From Halorussus lipolyticus (lineage in GTDB: Archaea; Halobacteriota; Halobacteria; Halobacteriales; Haladaptataceae): a DNA stretch of 24,000 nt. The notes beneath the pieces were generated by a model. The model worked only from the letters and a program-made list of their open reading frames with translations. It searched no databases and had not been told where the DNA came from. Shown here piece after piece: positions 5,623-18,425 of this stretch. A program made the position numbers and the translations under genes. Location of the stretch: assembly GCF_029338375.1 (NCBI RefSeq), contig NZ_CP119804.1, positions 1,670,955 through 1,694,954 on the forward strand, in the 5' to 3' direction. Numbering within the stretch: position 1 is the first letter of the stretch; every line of letters starts with the position of its first letter.

Positions 5623-6693
5623 ATGGACATCGCACCCTTCGAACTCGAACGCTGGTTCGCCGAGTACGAACACGAGGCCGACATCATGCTGGCCGAGAGC
5701 GGGATTCGGAGCCTCCGGGCCGACCGGTTCGACCTGAACCCCGGCAAGTTGGGCTACGTCATCCCGACCAACGGCGACCCCGAACTCAGGGCCGAGGTCG
5801 GAAGTCGGTACGACCGCGGAGCAGACGAACTGCTGTTCACCTGCGGGACCCAAGAAGCGAACCTCCTCGCGTTCCTCTCGCTGATGGACGAAGATAGTCA
5901 TGCCGTCGTTGTCACCCCAACGTATCAGGCGCTCCACGCTGTCCCCGAGTCCATCGGCGACGTGAGCAGGGTCTCGCTCGAACCCCCGGAGTGGGAACTC
6001 GACGTGGACGCCGTGGCCGACGCGATTCGGCCCGAAACCGAGGTGGTCGTCCTCAACAACCCGAACAACCCGACCGGGCGCTACCACCCCGAGGAGACGG
6101 TCCAAGCACTCTACGACCTCGCCGAGGACGAAGACGCCTACCTGCTCTGCGACGAAGTGTACAGGCTCCTCGCCGACGACCCCCTGCCGACCGTGGCGAG
6201 CATGGGCGACCACGGCATCAGCACGACCAGTCTGACCAAAGCCTACGGCCTCGCCGGCCTGCGGTTCGGCTGGATTGCCGGCCCCGAGGAGGTAATCGAG
6301 GAGGCGTGGAAATGGAAGGACTACACCACCATCTCGCCGTCCATCTTCGGTCAGCACATCGCCCGGCAGGCCCTCGGCGAGCGCGAGGACGCCATTCTGG
6401 CGGAGAACCGCGAGTTGGCCGCCCACAACCGCGAGCGAGTCCGGGAGTTCGTCGCCGAGTACGACCTCTCGTGGTACGACCCGGTGGGCGTCAACGGCTT
6501 CCTGTCGGTCCCGGAGGGATTCTCGGGGAGCGTGGACTTCTGCCGAGAAGTCGTGGAGGAGGAGGGCGTGGTCCTCGCACCGGGCGAGTTGTTCGGCTAC
6601 GACGACTACTTCCGCATCGGGTTCGGCCTGCCGACCGACGAGTTGGAGGAGGGCCTCTCGCGGGTGGCCGACTGCATCGAGCGCCGCGCCTGA
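5623..6693 (+). CDS. PLP-dependent aminotransferase, class I/II
   Basis: 356 aa with the fold-type I aminotransferase pattern: LNNPNNPTG, the SLTKAYGLAGLRFGW PLP-lysine motif, and FRIGFG near the C-terminus. Confidence 0.85.
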   Translation: MDIAPFELERWFAEYEHEADIMLAESGIRSLRADRFDLNPGKLGYVIPTNGDPELRAEVGSRYDRGADELLFTCGTQEANLLAFLSLMDEDSHAVVVTPTYQALHAVPESIGDVSRVSLEPPEWELDVDAVADAIRPETEVVVLNNPNNPTGRYHPEETVQALYDLAEDEDAYLLCDEVYRLLADDPLPTVASMGDHGISTTSLTKAYGLAGLRFGWIAGPEEVIEEAWKWKDYTTISPSIFGQHIARQALGEREDAILAENRELAAHNRERVREFVAEYDLSWYDPVGVNGFLSVPEGFSGSVDFCREVVEEEGVVLAPGELFGYDDYFRIGFGLPTDELEEGLSRVADCIERRA

Positions 6694-6952
6694 GAGCCGA
6701 TTCCGACGCCGAATCCCGTGGGACTCGGGGACGATACTCGCGGTGGAAGTTACCACGACTCTCTGATTTGGGGATACTTGCTCAGATTCAGTTTTAAAAT
6801 TTCTAGAGCCTTCTCAGCGTATTGTAAAACGTTAGTTCGACGGGGTGAAAAGACGGGAAACTAACTCGCCGGGGCTAAAACGCGCGAATTTCAGCTAACG
6901 CTCGCCCCTTTATATGATGGTGGGGGTTGTACGGAGAGATAGGTGACCCCCG

Positions 6953-7222
6953 ATGTCGAATGCCCCCTCCACGCTCGATACGCCCCTCCCCGACGAACGG
7001 CCCGACGAACTCGCCGACGCGCTGGACGCTGTGCGGTCCGCCCTCGACACCGCGTCCAAACCCTTCGAGTTCGCCGGGTTCTGGTCGGCAGTCGTCCTGC
7101 CGGCGCTCTACGTGCCCGTGCTGGTCGGCGGCGGCGTCCCCGAGCAACGCGCCGCCTTCGGCCTCTTGCTGGCAGTCCACGCCGTCGCGCTGGTCGCCGG
7201 ACACGGCTACCGCAACGACTGA
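6953..7222 (+). CDS. Small hypothetical membrane protein (89 aa, acidic N-terminus plus two hydrophobic segments)
   Basis: ORF track entry. AGGTGA (6941-6946) lies 6 nt upstream of the ATG, and TTTATAT (6909-6915) lies about 40 nt upstream. The composition is haloarchaeal-like. No family was recognised. Confidence 0.5.
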
Positions 7223-7371
7223 TTCCCGCTGACGTTCCCGGTGTCCTCCCGACGCACTCTCCGCTTTGCTCACGCCCTTCTTTGCCGCGTTCCCCTCTCT
7301 GCCACCCTCCCTTCTCTCCCCCGCTTCTCGCCCATCTGTCGTCCAAACCGACGGAAACCCATTCCAAACCG

Positions 7372-7377
7372 TTTATA
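7372..7377 (+). promoter_or_regulatory. TATA-box-like TTTATA upstream of the aIF5A gene (leaderless geometry)
   Basis: TTTATA is centred about 28 nt upstream of the ATG at 7402. This is the spacing expected for a leaderless archaeal mRNA. Confidence 0.4.
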
Positions 7378-7401
7378 CTACCCCGGACGCTATCCCGGCG
7401 T

Positions 7402-7782
7402 ATGGCAAAAGAGCAGAAGGAAGTACGGGACCTGCAGGAAGGCAACTACGTGATGATCGACGACGCCGCATGTGAAATCAACTCCTACAGCACGGCAAAA
7501 CCGGGCAAGCACGGTAGCGCGAAGGCCCGCATCGAGGCCGAAGGCGTCTTCGACGGCAAGAAGCGCAGTCTCTCTCAGCCTGTGGACGCCAAGATTTGGG
7601 TCCCCATCATCAACCGCAAACAGGGTCAGGTCGTCTCCGTCGAGAGCGACGACGTGGCGCAGGTCATGGACCTCGAAACCTACGAGACCATCACCATCAA
7701 GACGCCCGGTGATGTCTCGCTGTCGCCCGACGACGAACTCGAATACCTCGAAATGGACGACCAGCGGAAGATTCTCGAATAG
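7402..7782 (+). CDS. eif5a: Translation initiation factor 5A (aIF5A; elongation factor P homolog, hypusine/deoxyhypusine-modified)
   Basis: This is the C-terminal 126 aa of track ORF 6943-7782, starting at [48 protein letters not shown]. The [13 protein letters not shown] loop carries the modified Lys and is diagnostic. The upstream part of the long ORF is Arg/Pro-rich junk. Confidence 0.93.
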
Positions 7783-12545: not shown

Positions 12546-14870
12546 ATGGGACACAAATGGCCATTCGTGGAGAGAGTACGACGGAGCTACGCATCGAAGC
12601 TCGCGGTCGCGCTGGTGTCGGTCGTGGCGCTGACCGTCGTGGTCGGGGCGCTGATACACGTCCAGACCGGCGAGCGACTGCGGACCGACGTGCAAGACGA
12701 GTTGACTGCGTTCTCGAACTCGCGGGCCGACACGCTCGACACGTGGCTGTCGAGCGTCGAGACCCAGACGAAACTGACCTCACAGCATCCAGCCCTCAAG
12801 ACCGGCGACACCGACCGCATCCGGGGGCACTTGAAGGGGCTGGTAACCGACGGGACGGTCCCCGACGGCGTGGTCGCGGTCCACTACTACGACGCCGAGG
12901 AGGGAACCATCGTGACGAGTTCGAGCGACGAACTCGCGGGAGTCAGTCCCGGCGAGCAGGGCGCGCCCTTCGCCACCGACCCGCCGAACTACGACGGCGC
13001 TGACGACGTGTACGTCTCCGCGCCCTTCCGCGTCCCAATCGTGGACTTCCCGGTCGTGGCGGTCGTCTCGCCGGTTCCCGACCGACCGAACAAGCGGGTC
13101 ATCTACATGGTGAACATCGCCGAGCGAACCCGGTCGCTCACCGGCGGCGTCGAGGGCGGTTCGACGGTGGTCCTCGACGGACAGGGCCGGTATCTCGCCC
13201 ACCCCAACGCGAGCAAGCTACTGGCGATTCACCGCGGCGGGGACGACAGTCCCGCAGTCGAGCGCGGGGTCGCTGGCGAATCCGGATTCATGCAGATGGA
13301 CAGTGGGATGCTCATGGCCTACGCGCCGATGGAGTCGGCCGACTGGGTGGTCGTCGTCCACGCGCCACAGAGCGAGGCCTACGCGCTCGGGTCAGCAGTC
13401 ACGTCGAACATCCTCGGTCTCATCCTGCTGGCGGTGGTTAGCCTCGCACTGGTCGGCGTCACCGTCGGGAGCAACACGGTCATCTCGCTCCGCCAACTCT
13501 CGGCGAAGGCCGACGAGATGGCCAGCGGGGACCTCGACGTTGACTTGGAGACCGAGCGCCGCGACGAGTTCGGGTCGCTGTACGACTCCTTCGGCCGGAT
13601 GCGCGACTCGCTCCGGCAACAGATACGCGAGGCCGAGGAGGCCCGCGAATCCGCCGAGTCCGCGCGCCGGGAAGCCGAGGACGCCAAAGAGAGCGCCGAG
13701 GAGGCCCGCGAGGAGGCCGAAGCCCTCTCGTCGCACCTCGAAACCAAGGCCAACCACTACGAGGACGTGATGAGCGCGGCCGCAGACGGCGACCTCGGGG
13801 TTCGGGTGGACCCCGAAAGCCGGAGCGAGGCGATGGTCGCCATCGGCGAGTCGCTCAACGAGATGTTAGACGACATCGAGCGCACCGTGGCCAAAGTCAA
13901 GCGGTTCTCCTCGCACGTCTCGAACGCAGTCGTGGACGTGGAATCGAGCGCCGAGGAGGTCATGGCGACCGGCGAGGAGGTCAGCGAGTCGGTCGGCGAG
14001 ATTTCGGAGGGCGCGGCCAGACAGACCGAGAACCTCGGCGACGTGGCCGACGAGATGAACGCACTGTCGGCCAGCGCCCAACAGGTGGCGTCAACGGTGG
14101 ACGAAGTTGCGGCGACCTCCGAGCAGGCGGCCGCCGCGGGCCGGAACGGCCGGGAAGCCGCCGAGGACGCCCTCGCGGAGATGGATGCGGTCGAGACCGC
14201 AACCGAGCGGACCGCGGCCCAAATCGAGGAACTCGAAGACGAGATGGCCGCCATCGGCGAGGTGGTCGAGGTCATCACCGAAATAGCCGAGCAGACCAAC
14301 ATGCTCGCGCTGAACGCCTCCATCGAGGCCGCCCGGACCGGCGCGGAGGGCGACGGTTTCGCGGTGGTCGCAGACGAGGTGAAGAACCTCGCCGAGGAGA
14401 CCAAAGAGTCCGCCACCGAAATCGAGGGCCGCATCGAGCGCGTCCAGTCGAAGACGGCCGAATCGGTCGCGGAGATGCACGAGACCAGCGAGCGCATCAC
14501 GACCGGCGTCGAGACGGTCGAGGGCGCAATCGACGCGCTGGAGGAAATCGCGGAGTACGTCGAGGAGACCGACGCTCGAATCCGGGAAATCAACGAGGCC
14601 ACCGAGGACCAAGCAGAGTCGTCGTCCGCGGTGGTCGAGATGGTGGACGAAGTGGCGTCCATCAGCGAGGAGACCACCGGACAGGCCGAGTCGGTCGCCG
14701 ACGCGGCCGAGGCCCAGACGACCACGCTGGCGGAGGTCCGCGACGACGCCGAGGGACTGGCCGAGCGCGCGGCGGAACTCTCGGCCCTGCTCGACGACTT
14801 CCGGGTCACGAAGGGTACCGGACCGATGGACGAGACCGGCTTCGAGGCCGCGGAGGTGAGCGACCGATGA
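12546..14870 (+). CDS. htrII: Sensory rhodopsin II transducer (methyl-accepting chemotaxis/phototaxis protein HtrII) with large extracellular sensor domain
   Basis: 774 aa. TM1 is about aa 18-37, a roughly 250-aa extracytoplasmic Cache-like domain follows, and TM2 is about aa 286-308. After that come HAMP regions and the MCP signalling hairpin [38 protein letters not shown]. The stop overlaps the rhodopsin start (ATGA at 14867-14870). Confidence 0.92.
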
Positions 14871-15653: not shown

Positions 15654-16703
15654 ATGACTGACGACCACGAGGACGGCGGCCACGACGACGAAGGGCACCA
15701 CGAACCCCACCGCGAGGAGTTCCACCACGACCCAATCGCCCACGCCGAGGTCCGGGCGGGGATGACCGTCGGCGAGTTGGCCGAGTCCTACGGCGACGCG
15801 GGCATCGGTGCCGCCGACATCCACGAGGCCGTGGACATCTACGCCGAGATGTTGGGCGACGACGACGTGACCAACTTCTTCGGGTTGGCGGGCGCGATGG
15901 TGCCGACCGGGATGCGCAGAATCGTGGCGAACCTCATCCGGGACGGCCACATCGACGCGCTGGTCACGACCGGCGCGAACCTGACCCACGACGCCATCGA
16001 GGCTATCGGCGGGAAGCACCACCACGGCACCGAGGACCCCGGCGAGGACCGGACCCTGCGCGACCACGACGAGCAACTGCGCGACGAGCAGGTCGATAGG
16101 ATTTACAACGTCTACCTGCCACAGGAACACTTCGCGCTGTTCGAAAATCACCTGCGCTCGGAGGTGTTCCCCGAAGTCGAAGGCGAAGGGGCAGTGAGTA
16201 TTCAGGAACTGACCGCGGCGCTCGGCAAGGCCAACAGCGAGGTCAACGACCGCGAGGAGATTTCGGAGGGAGCGGGAGTCGCGGCCGCGGCCTACGAGAA
16301 CGACGTGCCCATCTACTGCCCGGCGATTCAGGACTCGGTGCTGGGCCTGCAAGCGTGGATGTACTCCCAGACCGCCGACTTCACGCTCGACGCGCTGGCC
16401 GACATGACGACCATCACCGACCAAGCCTTCGAGGCCGAGAAGTCCGGCGCGATGGTGGTCGGTGGGGGCGTCCCGAAGAACTACGTCCTCCAGACGATGC
16501 TGGTCTCGCCCGAGGCCTACGACTACGCGGTCCAGTTGACGATGGACCCGCCACAGACCGGCGGTCTCTCCGGGGCGACGCTGGACGAGGCCCGGTCGTG
16601 GGGCAAGTTGGAGAAGGCCGCGCGCAACGCCTCGGTGTACGCCGACGCGACGATTACCCTGCCGCTGGTGACGGCGGCGGCCCGCGAGCGAATCGGCGAG
16701 TAG
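15654..16703 (+). CDS. dhs: Deoxyhypusine synthase
   Basis: 349 aa. FFGLAGAMVPTGMR, DALVTTGANLTHD, VVGGGVPKNY, GGLSGATLDEARSWGK are canonical DHS motifs. It has a His/Asp-rich N-terminal extension. Confidence 0.9.
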   Translation: MTDDHEDGGHDDEGHHEPHREEFHHDPIAHAEVRAGMTVGELAESYGDAGIGAADIHEAVDIYAEMLGDDDVTNFFGLAGAMVPTGMRRIVANLIRDGHIDALVTTGANLTHDAIEAIGGKHHHGTEDPGEDRTLRDHDEQLRDEQVDRIYNVYLPQEHFALFENHLRSEVFPEVEGEGAVSIQELTAALGKANSEVNDREEISEGAGVAAAAYENDVPIYCPAIQDSVLGLQAWMYSQTADFTLDALADMTTITDQAFEAEKSGAMVVGGGVPKNYVLQTMLVSPEAYDYAVQLTMDPPQTGGLSGATLDEARSWGKLEKAARNASVYADATITLPLVTAAARERIGE

Positions 16704-16785
16704 CGCGCTCGGTGACGCTCTACGGAAACACCGTTCCGGAATTTATGTTTACTTCGCTCCGGATTTCGGGATGGAGGTGACAGAA

Positions 16786-16830
16786 ATGGAAGAAACAGAC
16801 AGCAATGTCGGCGACATCGGTGGTCCGTAA
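16786..16830 (+). CDS. Micro-ORF a, 14 aa: MEETDSNVGDIGGP
   Basis: GGAGGTGA at 16773-16780 lies 5 nt before the ATG. A TTTAT motif at 16742-16746 lies about 44 nt upstream. The ORF ends GGT CCG TAA. Confidence 0.5.
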   Translation: MEETDSNVGDIGGP

Positions 16831-16921
16831 CTGCGGAGCGGTCGAGACCGCCGAACGGCGTGTCCGAAGTCGGACACTTATTTCCGGTCGGCGTCCGAGT
16901 TCACCGACGGAGGTGAGAACG

Positions 16922-16966
16922 ATGGAAGCAACTGACAGTAACACGTCCTCGACCAGCGGCCCGTAA
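16922..16966 (+). CDS. Micro-ORF b, 14 aa: MEATDSNTSSTSGP
   Basis: GGAGGTGA at 16909-16916 lies 5 nt before the ATG. TTATTT at 16878-16883 lies about 44 nt upstream. The ORF ends GGC CCG TAA. Confidence 0.5.
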   Translation: MEATDSNTSSTSGP

Positions 16967-17059
16967 GCGACCGACTCCGGGGTCGGTTCCGGCGAAACCG
17001 CTCGCCGAACCGACAGCTATTCGCGGACGGCATCCGACTCCTCGACCGGAGGAGAACGA

Positions 17060-17104
17060 ATGCGCGAGACTGACGGCGCGGCGACTGTCGTGACCGGCCC
17101 GTAG
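17060..17104 (+). CDS. Micro-ORF c, 14 aa: MRETDGAATVVTGP
   Basis: GGAGGAG at 17048-17054 lies 5 nt before the ATG. CTATTC at 17017-17022 lies about 43 nt upstream. The ORF ends GGC CCG TAG. Confidence 0.45.
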   Translation: MRETDGAATVVTGP

Positions 17105-17179
17105 ACTTCGAATCGGCCCCTCGGAACTTCGACAGTTATTTCGACGCATCTCCGGACGAGGAGAACGGAGGTGAAAACG

Positions 17180-17224
17180 ATGACTGCGACCGACAACCAC
17201 GGCTCCTCGACGAGCGGCCCGTAG
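17180..17224 (+). CDS. Micro-ORF d, 14 aa: MTATDNHGSSTSGP
   Basis: GGAGGTGA at 17167-17174 lies 5 nt before the ATG. TTATTT at 17136-17141 lies about 44 nt upstream. The ORF ends GGC CCG TAG. Confidence 0.5.
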   Translation: MTATDNHGSSTSGP

Positions 17225-17369
17225 CGCGACCGACCCGTCTCGGGAGTTCGTCGTCAGTCGGGATGGACTGACGGGACGCTCACGAGATTTATTGCTTCGT
17301 CTGTTATTTAAAATAATCAGAAGAATATTACTAGTCATGTCGTCAATGCTTTGCCGGAGGTGAACGAGA

Positions 17370-17414
17370 ATGTCCGAACACGACGAGATTGCCGGTGGCA
17401 GTAACGGTCCGTAA
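17370..17414 (+). CDS. Micro-ORF e, 14 aa: MSEHDEIAGGSNGP
   Basis: GGAGGTGA at 17356-17363 lies 6 nt before the ATG. AATATTA at 17324-17330 lies about 44 nt upstream, inside an AT-rich block. The ORF ends GGT CCG TAA. Confidence 0.45.
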   Translation: MSEHDEIAGGSNGP

Positions 17415-17435: not shown

Positions 17436-17440
17436 TTTTT
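17436..17440 (+). terminator. Oligo-T run (T5) after the last micro-ORF
   Basis: acgtcTTTTTcgg lies 22 nt after the micro-ORF e stop and about 95 nt upstream of the SprT-like ATG. Confidence 0.3.
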
Positions 17441-17535: not shown

Positions 17536-18198
17536 ATGTCCGACCCCCCGAACCCGTCCGACGCTCGCCCCGCGTCCGGGTCGCGCCTCTCGCCCGACAC
17601 CGACCCCGAGGAGTCCCCGACCGTCCGCGCCCTCGCTCACGCCGAGACCGACGAGGAGGTCCTCCTCGGCTCCAGAGCCTACTGCCGCGAGGCCACCCGC
17701 GAGTACGGTCTCGACGTGGACTTGTCGCCGGTCGAGTGGGAGGTCTCGACCCGCGCGAAGCGTCGGGCCGCCGCGGTCAAGCGCCCGAAGATTCCCGGCG
17801 CAGAGGTGGGCGAGCCACTCGACTGGCGCGAGGCGGCCGAGCGCACCGGAACCTCGCTTGCGGACCTCCGGACCTGCACGCTCTCGCTGACGCGGGCGGC
17901 GTTCGACGCCTTCGACGTGGGCGAGTGGACCGCCACCCTCCGCCACGAACTCGTCCACGTCGAGCAGTTCCAGCGGTTCGGCGCGACCGACCACGGCCCG
18001 GCGTTCCGGGAGCGCGCCGAGGCGGTCTCCTCGACGGTCAACTGTCCGCCGTTCGCGGACCCGAAGTACGTGCTTCGGTGTGGCGAGTGTGAGACCGTGG
18101 TGGGACGCCGGTACCGCGAATGTAAGTTGGTGCGCGAGTACGACGAGTATCGCTCCTCGTGCTGTGGCTCCGAAATTGTATGTTTGAGACAGAATTAG
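17536..18198 (+). CDS. SprT-like zinc metalloprotease domain protein with C-terminal Cys-rich zinc ribbon
   Basis: The track ORF starts at TTG 17500. I prefer ATG 17536 (MSDPPNPSD...). The motif HELVHVEQFQRFGATDHGPAF is HExxH plus a downstream His, as in the SprT family. The C-terminus is CGEC...CCGS. Confidence 0.8.
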   Translation: MSDPPNPSDARPASGSRLSPDTDPEESPTVRALAHAETDEEVLLGSRAYCREATREYGLDVDLSPVEWEVSTRAKRRAAAVKRPKIPGAEVGEPLDWREAAERTGTSLADLRTCTLSLTRAAFDAFDVGEWTATLRHELVHVEQFQRFGATDHGPAFRERAEAVSSTVNCPPFADPKYVLRCGECETVVGRRYRECKLVREYDEYRSSCCGSEIVCLRQN

Positions 18199-18212
18199 AT
18201 GTGTTTAGATAG

Positions 18213-18220
18213 TTTATATA
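18213..18220 (+). promoter_or_regulatory. Strong TATA-like box TTTATATA in an AT-rich block
   Basis: agTTTATATAttttctaaat is the only AT-rich stretch between the SprT-like stop and the DUF92 gene. A transcript from here would read through repeat copy B. Confidence 0.35.
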
Positions 18221-18313
18221 TTTTCTAAATATGGGGGTGTATTTCTTTGTGCCCTCTCGCTTCGTCTCGGCGTAACCGTGAGTGCAACCAACAGAATCGA
18301 AGTGATGAAGACT

Positions 18314-18425
18314 TCTCGAAGCCCCGCCCCCTTCATCCCACCCATGTCGGTTGGTTGTCCGAGCGCATCCTGCCGGTTGGTTGTCCGAGCGCATCCCGGT
18401 GGTCTGCTCCACCGAGCGCGTCCGA
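18314..18425 (+). repeat. Copy B of the MITE-like intergenic repeat family, with an internal 23-nt tandem duplication
   Basis: tctcgaagccccgcc plus the core ccccttcatcccaccc (18327-18343) are followed by gtcggttgg..ccgagcg, then ggtgg-N6-ccaccgagcgcgtccg, colinear with 22987-23056. The unit cggttggttgtccgagcgcatcc occurs twice (18348-18370 and 18374-18396). Confidence 0.55.

Follow-up and report, generated by a model that had tools for sequence, protein, structure and literature searches.

A tandem array of 14-codon open reading frames ending in Gly-Pro-stop beside the deoxyhypusine synthase gene of Halorussus lipolyticus

Peptides that arrest the ribosome at their own termination step commonly end in proline, and TnaC of Escherichia coli needs Asp16 and Pro24 at a fixed spacing (PMC8450073). 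In yeast, depletion of eIF5A produces pauses at stop codons, at Gly-Pro and Pro-Gly dipeptides and with Asp in the tunnel, and a proline before the stop slows termination (PMC5499558; review PMC13602936). Ribosome profiling of Haloferax volcanii detects unannotated intergenic small open reading frames (smORFs) and upstream open reading frames (uORFs), some of them conserved among haloarchaea (PMC7261190, PMC10117724); no tandem array of 14-codon frames led by a Shine–Dalgarno sequence (SD) and sharing a Gly-Pro-stop end surfaced in the parts of these reports that were searched. Here we describe five SD-led open reading frames (ORFs) of 14 codons, arranged in tandem between dhs, the gene of deoxyhypusine synthase, and a SprT-like peptidase gene in a 24,000-nucleotide stretch of the haloarchaeon Halorussus lipolyticus (contig NZ_CP119804.1, positions 1,670,955 to 1,694,954), the whole of which we call the window. 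The units are probably real and selected as ORFs, and the best reading of the array, drawn from comparison with its homologues, is that of a young, lineage-specific tandem family of translated micro-genes. We know of no archaeal arrest peptide, and literature searches turned up neither a description of such an array nor an arrest peptide in Archaea.

The five units are located as follows:

16786-16830, + strand: unit 1 ORF, ATG to TAA, 14 codons, peptide MEETDSNVGDIGGP; SD GGAGGTGA at 16773-16780
16922-16966, + strand: unit 2 ORF, ATG to TAA, 14 codons, peptide MEATDSNTSSTSGP; SD GGAGGTGA starting at 16909
17060-17104, + strand: unit 3 ORF, ATG to TAG, 14 codons, peptide MRETDGAATVVTGP; SD-like GGAGGAGA starting at 17048
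17180-17224, + strand: unit 4 ORF, ATG to TAG, 14 codons, peptide MTATDNHGSSTSGP; SD GGAGGTGA at 17167-17174
17370-17414, + strand: unit 5 ORF, ATG to TAA, 14 codons, peptide MSEHDEIAGGSNGP; SD GGAGGTGA starting at 17356

Read directly, all five ORFs have Asp at codon 5, a GGY-CCG-TAR ending and GGAGGNGA 4-6 nt 5' of the ATG; the stops of units 1 to 5 are, in order, TAA, TAA, TAG, TAG and TAA. A sequence-only reading of the stretch had proposed these ORFs, and their coordinates and translations are exactly as it gave them. The features that it named as shared (ATG, Asp5, the GGY-CCG end, TAA or TAG and never TGA) are present in five of five, its SDs are found as GGAGGTGA in four units and GGAGGAGA in one, ending 4-6 nt before the ATG, and the A/T hexamer that it placed 43-45 nt upstream of the ATG occurs in all five. 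It erred in saying that no + strand ORF is listed between dhs and the SprT-like gene: the ORF listing does show some, such as 16805-16966 (53 aa), which are mere upstream extensions of the micro-ORFs. Few columns are invariant in the five-unit alignment, namely the TAT core of the A/T box, GGAGG-GA, ATG, GAC at codon 5 and GG-CCGTA. The spacers separating the ORFs vary between 75 and 145 nt, and the SD-ATG spacing and ORF length are constant. The encoded peptides are small, acidic and hydrophilic; Trp is absent from every one of them, as are Cys and any signal or leader sequence.

The recurrence of this layout is not explained by base composition. The pattern GGAGG-N7-9-ATG-N9-GAY-N21-GGN-CCG-TAR matches five times in the window and not once in 100 dinucleotide shuffles, so that the chance frequency in shuffled DNA, which the sequence-only reading had named as a possible refutation, does not account for it. 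A scan of larger collections returned 12 matches in genome contigs, a set with a single genome for each prokaryotic species, another 22 in JGI metagenomes and one in IMG/VR. All 35 are single and unclustered, seven contain an internal stop and all but one are non-haloarchaeal; the sole true relative among them is a metagenome contig, L037. Given only scattered singles in the collections and none in the shuffles, five copies within 630 nt are not a chance event. A copy in Halorussus caseinilyticus (contig L013, 6984-7041) fits the pattern and was missing from the genome-collection scan. The collection must therefore lack or mask that stretch, and absence from it is uninformative for close relatives.

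The relatives were compared at the locus itself: the dhs loci of 11 relatives and the metagenome contig L037 were all searched with an nhmmer profile of the unit. Only two of the 12, H. caseinilyticus and L037, contain units, and both do so at the same locus: after dhs in L037 and before the SprT-like gene in L013. The intact H. caseinilyticus copy (6997-7041, MEETDNHGSSTSGP) has 14 codons, carries GGAGGTGA and TTATTT at matching distances, and lies 70 nt 5' of the annotated SprT start. It is followed at 7053-7110 by a decayed copy resembling unit 3, which has kept its SD, lost its ATG to a 3-nt deletion and lost its stop (GPPP...). L037, a 1.6-kb contig with a dhs 93% identical to that of the window, has at least three copies directly after dhs: M_a (MRATDSNSSTISGP), M_b (MRENDSNDSINSGP) and M_c (MHETDNHAST..., from 1563), which is truncated by the contig end. 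Subtypes can be paired across genomes: unit 1 with M_b, unit 2 with M_a, unit 4 with both the intact H. caseinilyticus copy (C_a) and M_c, and unit 3 with the decayed copy (C_b). Copy number is thus five in the window, at least three in L037 and one plus one decayed in L013, and the order of the units is shuffled. The nhmmer profile found no unit at the dhs loci of the ten other relatives, and no other SD-led Pro-stop micro-ORF was found near dhs in these array-less genomes.

In eight of the ten array-less relatives the interval between dhs and the SprT-like gene is filled instead by a leaderless gene of about 100 aa on the opposite strand, encoding a DUF7967 protein:

L014 6363-6665, L015 6335-6652, L016 7295-7576, L039 6350-6676, L040 6208-6483, L043 6569-6871, L044 6577-6879, - strand: DUF7967 gene, highly conserved, acidic

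It is present in every array-less relative in which the interval is wholly visible, except L042. No trace of it was detected in the window by tblastn, and it is missing from L013 too, so the DUF7967 gene and the array appear to be mutually exclusive. Because units occur only in the window and two relatives, with DUF7967 at the site elsewhere, the array is best seen as a derived, lineage-specific replacement at one site; its confinement to a small sub-clade and absence from ten close relatives mark the family as young and dispensable. An origin of the units from the DUF7967 gene was considered and rejected, given the lack of a tblastn trace and given that DUF7967 is leaderless, without SD and on the other strand. 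The shared 'M-A-T-D' start is a common haloarchaeal N-terminus.

Homologous units allow the reading frame to be examined for selection. All eight complete copies (five in the window, three in relatives) have exactly 14 codons. Asp5 is invariant in the nine units with a readable codon 5, Thr4 is found in seven of these nine, and Gly13 and Pro14 are invariant in complete units. The units of the relatives keep the ATG, the 14 codons, Thr or Asn at position 4, Asp5 and GP-TAA, whereas third positions drift and middle codons are replaced. The codons vary both for Thr4 (ACA, ACT, ACC) and for Gly13 (GGT, GGC), so conservation lies at the level of the amino acid. Over codons 4-14, unit 4 and C_a show four synonymous differences and no amino-acid difference. 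Between homologous units the ratio of nonsynonymous to synonymous change (pN/pS) is 0.2-0.4. When substitutions were randomised in three independent pairs, 13 amino-acid differences were observed against 21.8±2.1 expected (0 of 20,000 simulations), and the chance of all three pairs keeping ATG, frame and stop was 0.003. Nucleotide divergence in these three homologous pairs is 20-36%. Third-position GC content (GC3) is 0.70 in the proposed frame against 0.49 and 0.59 in the other two, and only in the proposed frame is the third position the highest. Codons 8-12 vary freely, their divergence exceeding that of the hairpin and A/T box on either side, and the sole copy without an ATG, the decayed one of L013, is also without a stop. 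These comparisons indicate that selection acts on the start, frame, exact length, Thr4-Asp5 and Gly13-Pro14-stop, and not on codons 8-12. The sequence-only reading had argued for selection on translation or on the peptide rather than on a DNA repeat, which the units of two other Halorussus genomes now support; the ortholog alignment that it had suggested as a check shows length, Asp5 and GP-stop kept while wobble positions drift.

Searches for known families and for simpler explanations of the repeats gave little. Rfam yielded no match at the gathering score in the whole window and none at E<=10 in the units, the only match at that cut-off being a chance-level xerDC (E=6.3) outside them. Since the 14-mers fall under the 20-aa minimum of the hidden Markov model search program, extended and concatenated peptides were used, and nothing below E=0.3 was found in Pfam/NCBIfam. 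A simple tandem DNA repeat was rejected, as Tandem Repeats Finder finds none and units resemble one another only in the SD, in the A/T box and at both ends of the ORF. A structured RNA was rejected for lack of a common structure, only unit 1 folding better than shuffles. A gene on the opposite strand, in the form of a 145-aa antisense ORF at 16901-17338, has no Pfam match and a non-coding composition (GC3 0.48). The units are not duplicated 5' ends of the SprT-like gene, because SprT N-termini and upstream regions of five genomes are unrelated to them. Nor is a mobile or viral origin indicated: there is no similarity in plasmid or phage collections, and the lone viral-contig match is the same chance match as L034.

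Each unit appears to be equipped with its own control elements, listed here with the structures that follow the ORFs:

16742, + strand: A/T box of unit 1, TTTATG, 44 nt before the ATG
16878-16883, + strand: A/T box of unit 2, TTATTT; also the T-run after the unit 1 hairpin GTGTCCGAAGTCGGACAC
17017-17022, + strand: A/T box of unit 3, CTATTC, after the unit 2 hairpins
17136-17141, + strand: A/T box of unit 4, TTATTT
17325, + strand: A/T box of unit 5, ATATTA, inside a T/A-rich stretch
16723-16747, + strand: hairpin CGGAAACACCGTTCCG then GAATTTATG, terminator-like for dhs, doubling as the unit 1 A/T box
16836-16883, + strand: unit 1 post-ORF elements, hairpin GCGGTCGAGACCGC (nearly identical in L037) and hairpin GTGTCCGAAGTCGGACAC then TTATTT
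16969-17022, + strand: GC-rich hairpins after the unit 2 ORF, GACCGAC...GTCGGT (alternative pairing, direct reading) and 16982-17014 (computed fold)
17238-17335, + strand: long imperfect hairpin after unit 4, arms 17238-17259 and 17266-17287, then a T/A-rich stretch; GC falls to 0.47
17436-17440, + strand: T5 run, 22 nt 3' of the unit 5 stop (direct reading)

The distance from the ATG to the A/T box is 44 nt in six of the nine units of the window and relatives, while anything between 32 and 101 nt separates the box from the stop before it. Being spaced relative to the downstream ATG and not to the upstream stop, the box belongs to the downstream unit, which favours a promoter. With a TATA centre lying near -27, transcripts would start 1-3 nt 5' of the SD. 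The haloarchaeal TATA motif is TTWT (PMC4983044), which the A/T boxes, mostly TTATTT, fit. The proposal made earlier, that every unit has its own promoter, thus holds for the fixed geometry of box and ATG, and its support is limited to that geometry. In units 1, 2 and 4, GC-rich hairpins begin 3-10 nt 3' of the stops and are followed by T-rich runs, and the T5 run after unit 5 is a candidate archaeal terminator that may insulate the SprT-like gene from the array. RNA folding was better than in shuffles for unit 1 alone (z=-3.4), and folds of single units revealed no structure common to all. In unit 1 (16770-16890) and its L037 homologue (1411-1530), the 5' GGAGGUGA pairs with the downstream CACUUAUUUCC, G-U pairs included, closing the unit into one stem; UUAUUUCC is a C-to-U version of the anti-SD UCACCUCC. 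Strongly AT-rich stretches of 45-60 nt, unusual in a 65% GC genome, precede both the last unit of the window (17289-17335) and the sole intact H. caseinilyticus unit (L013 6895-6950).

The SDs are themselves unusual. In 112 kb of Halorussus DNA, GGAGGTGA is rare, with 17 occurrences against about 4.6 expected; eight of the 17 sites belong to micro-ORF units, and another five serve as SD for the rhodopsin gene of an MCP-rhodopsin operon. There, the 3' end of the MCP (transducer) gene contains a perfect GGAGGTGA, spaced 7 nt from the ATG of the rhodopsin gene (window 14852-14870; L013 4171; L040 4198; L043 4171; L044 4173), and the two genes overlap at ATGA, a conserved case of an SD serving a distal operon gene. 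In Haloferax volcanii, it was shown that initiation is not driven by SD motifs of 5' untranslated regions (UTRs), and a role in serving distal operon genes has been suggested for such motifs (PMC3986360). Of the sequence-only reading's view that consensus SDs signal autonomous translation, the perfect SDs stand, and the deduction drawn from them is unsafe. Perfect SDs on apparently monocistronic micro-ORFs are odd, which suggests that polycistronic expression should be kept in mind.

A striking feature of the units is how they end. Pro14 is encoded by CCG in all eight complete, mutually related units, against 56% CCG in 72 ordinary genes, and TGA, the stop of 71% of ordinary genes, is used by none of the eight, among which TAA and TAG interchange. 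Among the 72 ordinary genes, a Pro end was found once and a Gly-Pro end never. Gly-Pro-stop is a classic context of poor termination, a point absent from the sequence-only reading, as is the presence of aIF5A and agmatinase genes in the window. The layout of a unit can be summarized as a TTWT-type TATA box, a perfect 8-mer complementary to 16S rRNA (anti-16S) about 31 nt downstream, ATG, 13 codons and GGY-CCG-UAA/UAG; the 8-mer would lie at or beside the predicted 5' end of the transcript, and most units then have a GC-rich hairpin and/or a T-run. We propose that the functional event may be translation termination itself. Formation of the Gly-to-Pro bond and hydrolysis of peptidyl-tRNA(Pro) at the stop are both intrinsically slow steps, assisted by e/aIF5A. 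With Pro14 in the P site, the entire 14-mer would still be within the exit tunnel, and Thr4-Asp5 would then be 9-10 residues from the peptidyl-transferase centre, near the constriction, in a geometry like that of Asp16 and Pro24 in TnaC. The dwell time on the stop codon could be set by aIF5A-hypusine capacity or by some ligand. A ribosome stalled there would cover the first ~12-15 nt 3' of the stop, where the hairpins of units 1, 2 and 4 begin, and its dwell might alter RNA 3'-end formation, RNA stability or read-through to the next unit and the SprT-like gene.

The genes that flank the array and those of the same pathway are:

15654-16703, + strand: dhs, deoxyhypusine synthase, left neighbour of the array; 349 aa, 92-93% identity to Halorussus homologues with PF01916
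17478-17535, + strand: upstream region of the SprT-like gene, GTTTTCGACCAGTCGGGACACTCTTGAGG..., where homology to array-less relatives resumes
17536-18198, + strand: SprT-like zinc-metallopeptidase, right neighbour of the array; PF10263, E=2e-6
C-terminal ~120 aa of the ORF 6943-7782, + strand: aIF5A, PF21485/PF01287
7783-8598, + strand: arginase-family (agmatinase-like) gene, PF00491

Both flanking genes had been named correctly from the sequence (PF01916 homologues; PF10263). The dhs of the window is 92-93% identical to those of H. caseinilyticus, H. salinus and others, and the SprT-like gene is syntenic in every relative whose contig reaches that far; homology to array-less relatives resumes at GGGACACTCTTGAGG, just 5' of it. 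The aIF5A and agmatinase-like genes lie 8-10 kb upstream of the array in the same window, followed by NIF3 and the MCP-rhodopsin operon. Together with dhs they form a hypusine-pathway neighbourhood, all on one strand within about 10 kb, and arginase-family and dhs genes are also grouped in the relatives L013, L015 and L043. This neighbourhood is present in array-less relatives as well.

Some further observations concern the surroundings of the locus. In H. caseinilyticus (L013 7053-7230) the SprT-like gene is annotated to start at 7111, where the decayed copy ends, and the first ~40 residues of the annotated protein cover the homologue of the window's non-coding upstream TCGGGACACTC...; the annotation probably extends the N-terminus too far. 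In the window, the SprT-like gene is followed by an AT-rich stretch (18190-18245, GC about 0.43), and a 22-nt direct repeat, GGTTGGTTGTCCGAGCGCATCC, occurs in two copies with a 4-nt gap at 18349-18396, at the start of an ORF for a DUF92 membrane protein. In another haloarchaeon (L046, dhs 86% identical), two near-perfect tandem repeats (23 nt x 3.7 and 28 nt x 3.1, 6014-6189) begin at the dhs stop codon and reach the contig end; their sequence is unrelated to the units.

What the units do can be weighed from these features. The conserved start, exact length, Thr-Asp at 4-5 and Gly-Pro-stop are features read by the ribosome more than by a partner, and on that ground we tentatively favour termination-stall micro-ORFs, whose function would lie in a stall at the ribosome and not in the released peptide, while holding the idea at less than even confidence. 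The other candidate that comes close, being almost as likely and still on the unlikely side, is that the released 14-mers are the product: diversifying small acidic peptides that could be regulators within the cell, signals, or substrates for a modification or export system encoded elsewhere, with conserved ends (M-x-[EA]-T-D..., ...G-P) for recognition or exopeptidase protection and a variable core carrying specificity. Multiple diversified copies with a hypervariable core (codons 8-12) between conserved ends would suit such peptides, as would the apparent autonomy of the units (a fixed A/T box-ATG distance, and a hairpin or T-run of their own), the lack of a cis target and the presence of constraint at the amino-acid level. 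They do not predict the constraint on the stop codon and on CCG, however, and around the array the window and L013 have no maturase, transporter or receptor gene in common, the peptides lack Cys and any signal or leader sequence, and no known peptide family matches. Functional free peptides of such length are also very rare. Alternatively, the units might be serial attenuator or uORF modules for the SprT-like gene, the TTATTT and T5 after the hairpins acting as terminators and ribosomes on the micro-ORFs deciding read-through from dhs or unit 1. The array does abut the SprT-like gene on the same strand in both wholly visible loci, with the intact L013 unit 70 nt before the annotated start; hairpins with T-runs are found after dhs and after units 1 and 4, with a T5 run after unit 5; and haloarchaeal SD motifs are associated with internal genes of polycistronic RNAs, the rhodopsin gene being an example (PMC3986360). 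We nevertheless consider this scenario quite unlikely, as the A/T box is positioned from the downstream ATG (favouring promoter over terminator), the SprT-like gene still has the upstream region that serves it in array-less relatives, neither an alternative terminator/antiterminator pairing nor a regulatory run of codons turned up, and the RNA folds no better than shuffles except in unit 1.

Two further alternatives deny the ORFs a role. In one, they would be incidental to a repeated non-coding element, that is, small RNAs with a 5' anti-16S sequence or DNA for promoters, terminators or protein binding. Against this, the 14-codon length, ATG and stop are kept across eight copies despite 20-36% nucleotide divergence in three homologous pairs, third-position changes are in excess, amino-acid changes are below expectation, start and stop were lost together in the lone decayed copy, and there is neither an Rfam match nor a structure common to all units. 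It is in favour of such an element that the hairpin GCGGTCGAGACCGC and the ACACTTATTTCC box are conserved between genomes at least as well as the ORF interior, that GC3 (0.70) is well under the 0.88 of ordinary genes and that, in unit 1 and its homologue in L037, pairing is possible between the SD and UUAUUUCC downstream of it, and overall we rate it improbable, on a par with attenuation. Marginally less probable again is a neutral by-product, a fortuitous SD-ATG-stop segment that was recently duplicated in tandem, replaced the DUF7967 gene and is decaying without function. Its restriction to three closely related genomes and absence from ten relatives, the copy number of 1-5, shuffled order, one decayed copy and fast evolution are what such a history would leave, whereas the subtypes, which separated before the three genomes did, have still preserved frame, length and end motifs, neutrality is rejected by the randomisation tests, and the positions of SD and A/T box are conserved.

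Several observations count against the favoured reading of the array. The counts for CCG and for non-TGA stops stem from related copies and are not independent events. Known arrest peptides regulate a downstream gene; the units apparently carry their own promoter and terminator, so that there is no obvious cis target, and the SprT-like gene retains the same upstream region as in array-less relatives. As dhs has the same neighbourhood in ten array-less relatives, its adjacency to the array may be accidental. The pN of the units is 3-8 times that of dhs and their GC3 of 0.70 is far below the 0.88 of ordinary genes; fast evolution, a copy number of 1-5 and one decayed copy mean that constraint is weak or recent. 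SD motifs in H. volcanii 5' UTRs do not drive initiation (PMC3986360), and an archaeal arrest peptide was not found in the literature searches. A specific link of the units to aIF5A and hypusine is doubtful. Equally speculative is the fullest form of the proposal, in which the units, placed next to hypusine-pathway genes, would be the first nascent-peptide arrest modules described in Archaea, their termination rate reporting aIF5A-hypusine capacity or a polyamine-type ligand and their action being exerted through ribosome occupancy on their own short RNAs and not on a conventional cistron downstream.

If translated, the units would be among the smallest conserved genes known in any archaeon and would offer a clear natural case of micro-genes that arose and turned over very recently, with a new array replacing an older gene at one locus. 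If Pro-stop stalling proves true, they would give research on archaeal translation its first arrest-peptide system and a built-in reporter of aIF5A/hypusine function, an essential function that is difficult to investigate in archaea. The units are relevant, too, to the long-standing question of why perfect SDs persist in haloarchaea when such motifs are dispensable in Haloferax 5' UTRs; eight perfectly conserved SDs before 14-codon ORFs provide a direct test case.

Among described systems, TnaC of the E. coli tna operon (PMC8450073) is similar in being a short ORF with Pro as its last sense codon directly before the stop, in having an essential Asp 8 residues upstream of that Pro (9 for Asp5 of the units), in an intervening sequence that is free to vary, and in that no part of the regulatory peptide has left the tunnel when the ribosome stalls, a stall being a proposal for the units. 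TnaC differs in being bacterial and single-copy, with 24 codons, a need for Trp12 and free tryptophan, UGA and RF2 at the stop, and Rho-dependent termination before tnaAB, whereas the units contain no Trp, lack tna genes, come as five autonomous copies, use UAA or UAG only and have an archaeal host. They therefore fall outside the TnaC family proper (Trp12-Asp16-Pro24 upstream of tnaA/tnaB), no tryptophanase or permease gene being present in the window. Two traits of termination-type arrest peptides are nonetheless found: Pro directly before the stop in eight of eight complete units, and a conserved residue about 8-12 from the C-terminal Pro, represented by Asp5 in nine of nine units together with the fixed 14-codon length. 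As to a gene or terminator in cis that might depend on a stall, units 1, 2 and 4 have hairpins beginning within 3-10 nt of their stops, with T-runs after them, but the next element is another unit and the SprT-like gene has an upstream region of its own. The cytomegalovirus (CMV) gp48 uORF2 (Pro-Pro-stop; CMV-AP in PMC8450073) is likewise a tiny ORF whose nascent chain inhibits peptidyl-tRNA hydrolysis at the stop. Eukaryotic uORFs of this type differ in blocking scanning ribosomes before a main ORF; scanning does not occur on archaeal mRNAs, and units 1-4 have no main ORF after them. The fungal arginine attenuator peptide and the polyamine-responsive MAGDIS uORF of AdoMetDC are also tiny uORFs that stall at termination. 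In these eukaryotic uORFs a conserved Asp and/or a terminal Pro recurs, and the polyamine/eIF5A link of some parallels the dhs/aIF5A neighbourhood of the array.

Other comparisons are more partial. The SecM arrest motif, ...GIRAGP, has a Gly-Pro pair at the peptidyl-transferase centre as its critical slow step, like the step proposed for the units; SecM, a protein of about 170 aa, stalls during elongation while Pro-tRNA occupies the A site, and what it senses is secretion force. The mccA gene, which encodes the 7-codon microcin C precursor, resembles a unit as a minimal autonomous gene with its own ribosome-binding site, a hairpin after it, a hydrophilic peptide and an invariant C-terminal residue. 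Unlike the units, MccA ends in Asn and is always found beside mccB-E; the units end in Gly-Pro, and no ThiF/MccB-like gene lies in the window. Leaders of the trpL/hisL type do not match either, there being no common codon run and no alternative pairing common to the units, with a SprT-like peptidase as the downstream gene. The one trait shared with precursors of ribosomally synthesized and post-translationally modified peptides is a variable core with conserved flanks; the 14-mers have no leader, and no shared maturase or transporter lies near the arrays of the window and L013. The smORFs of Haloferax volcanii are likewise unannotated, intergenic and haloarchaeal, and the micro-ORF family is limited to one Halorussus sub-clade. 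On these comparisons the units would work most like Pro-stop arrest peptides, and in kind they may be classed as micro-ORFs or leader-type peptide genes.

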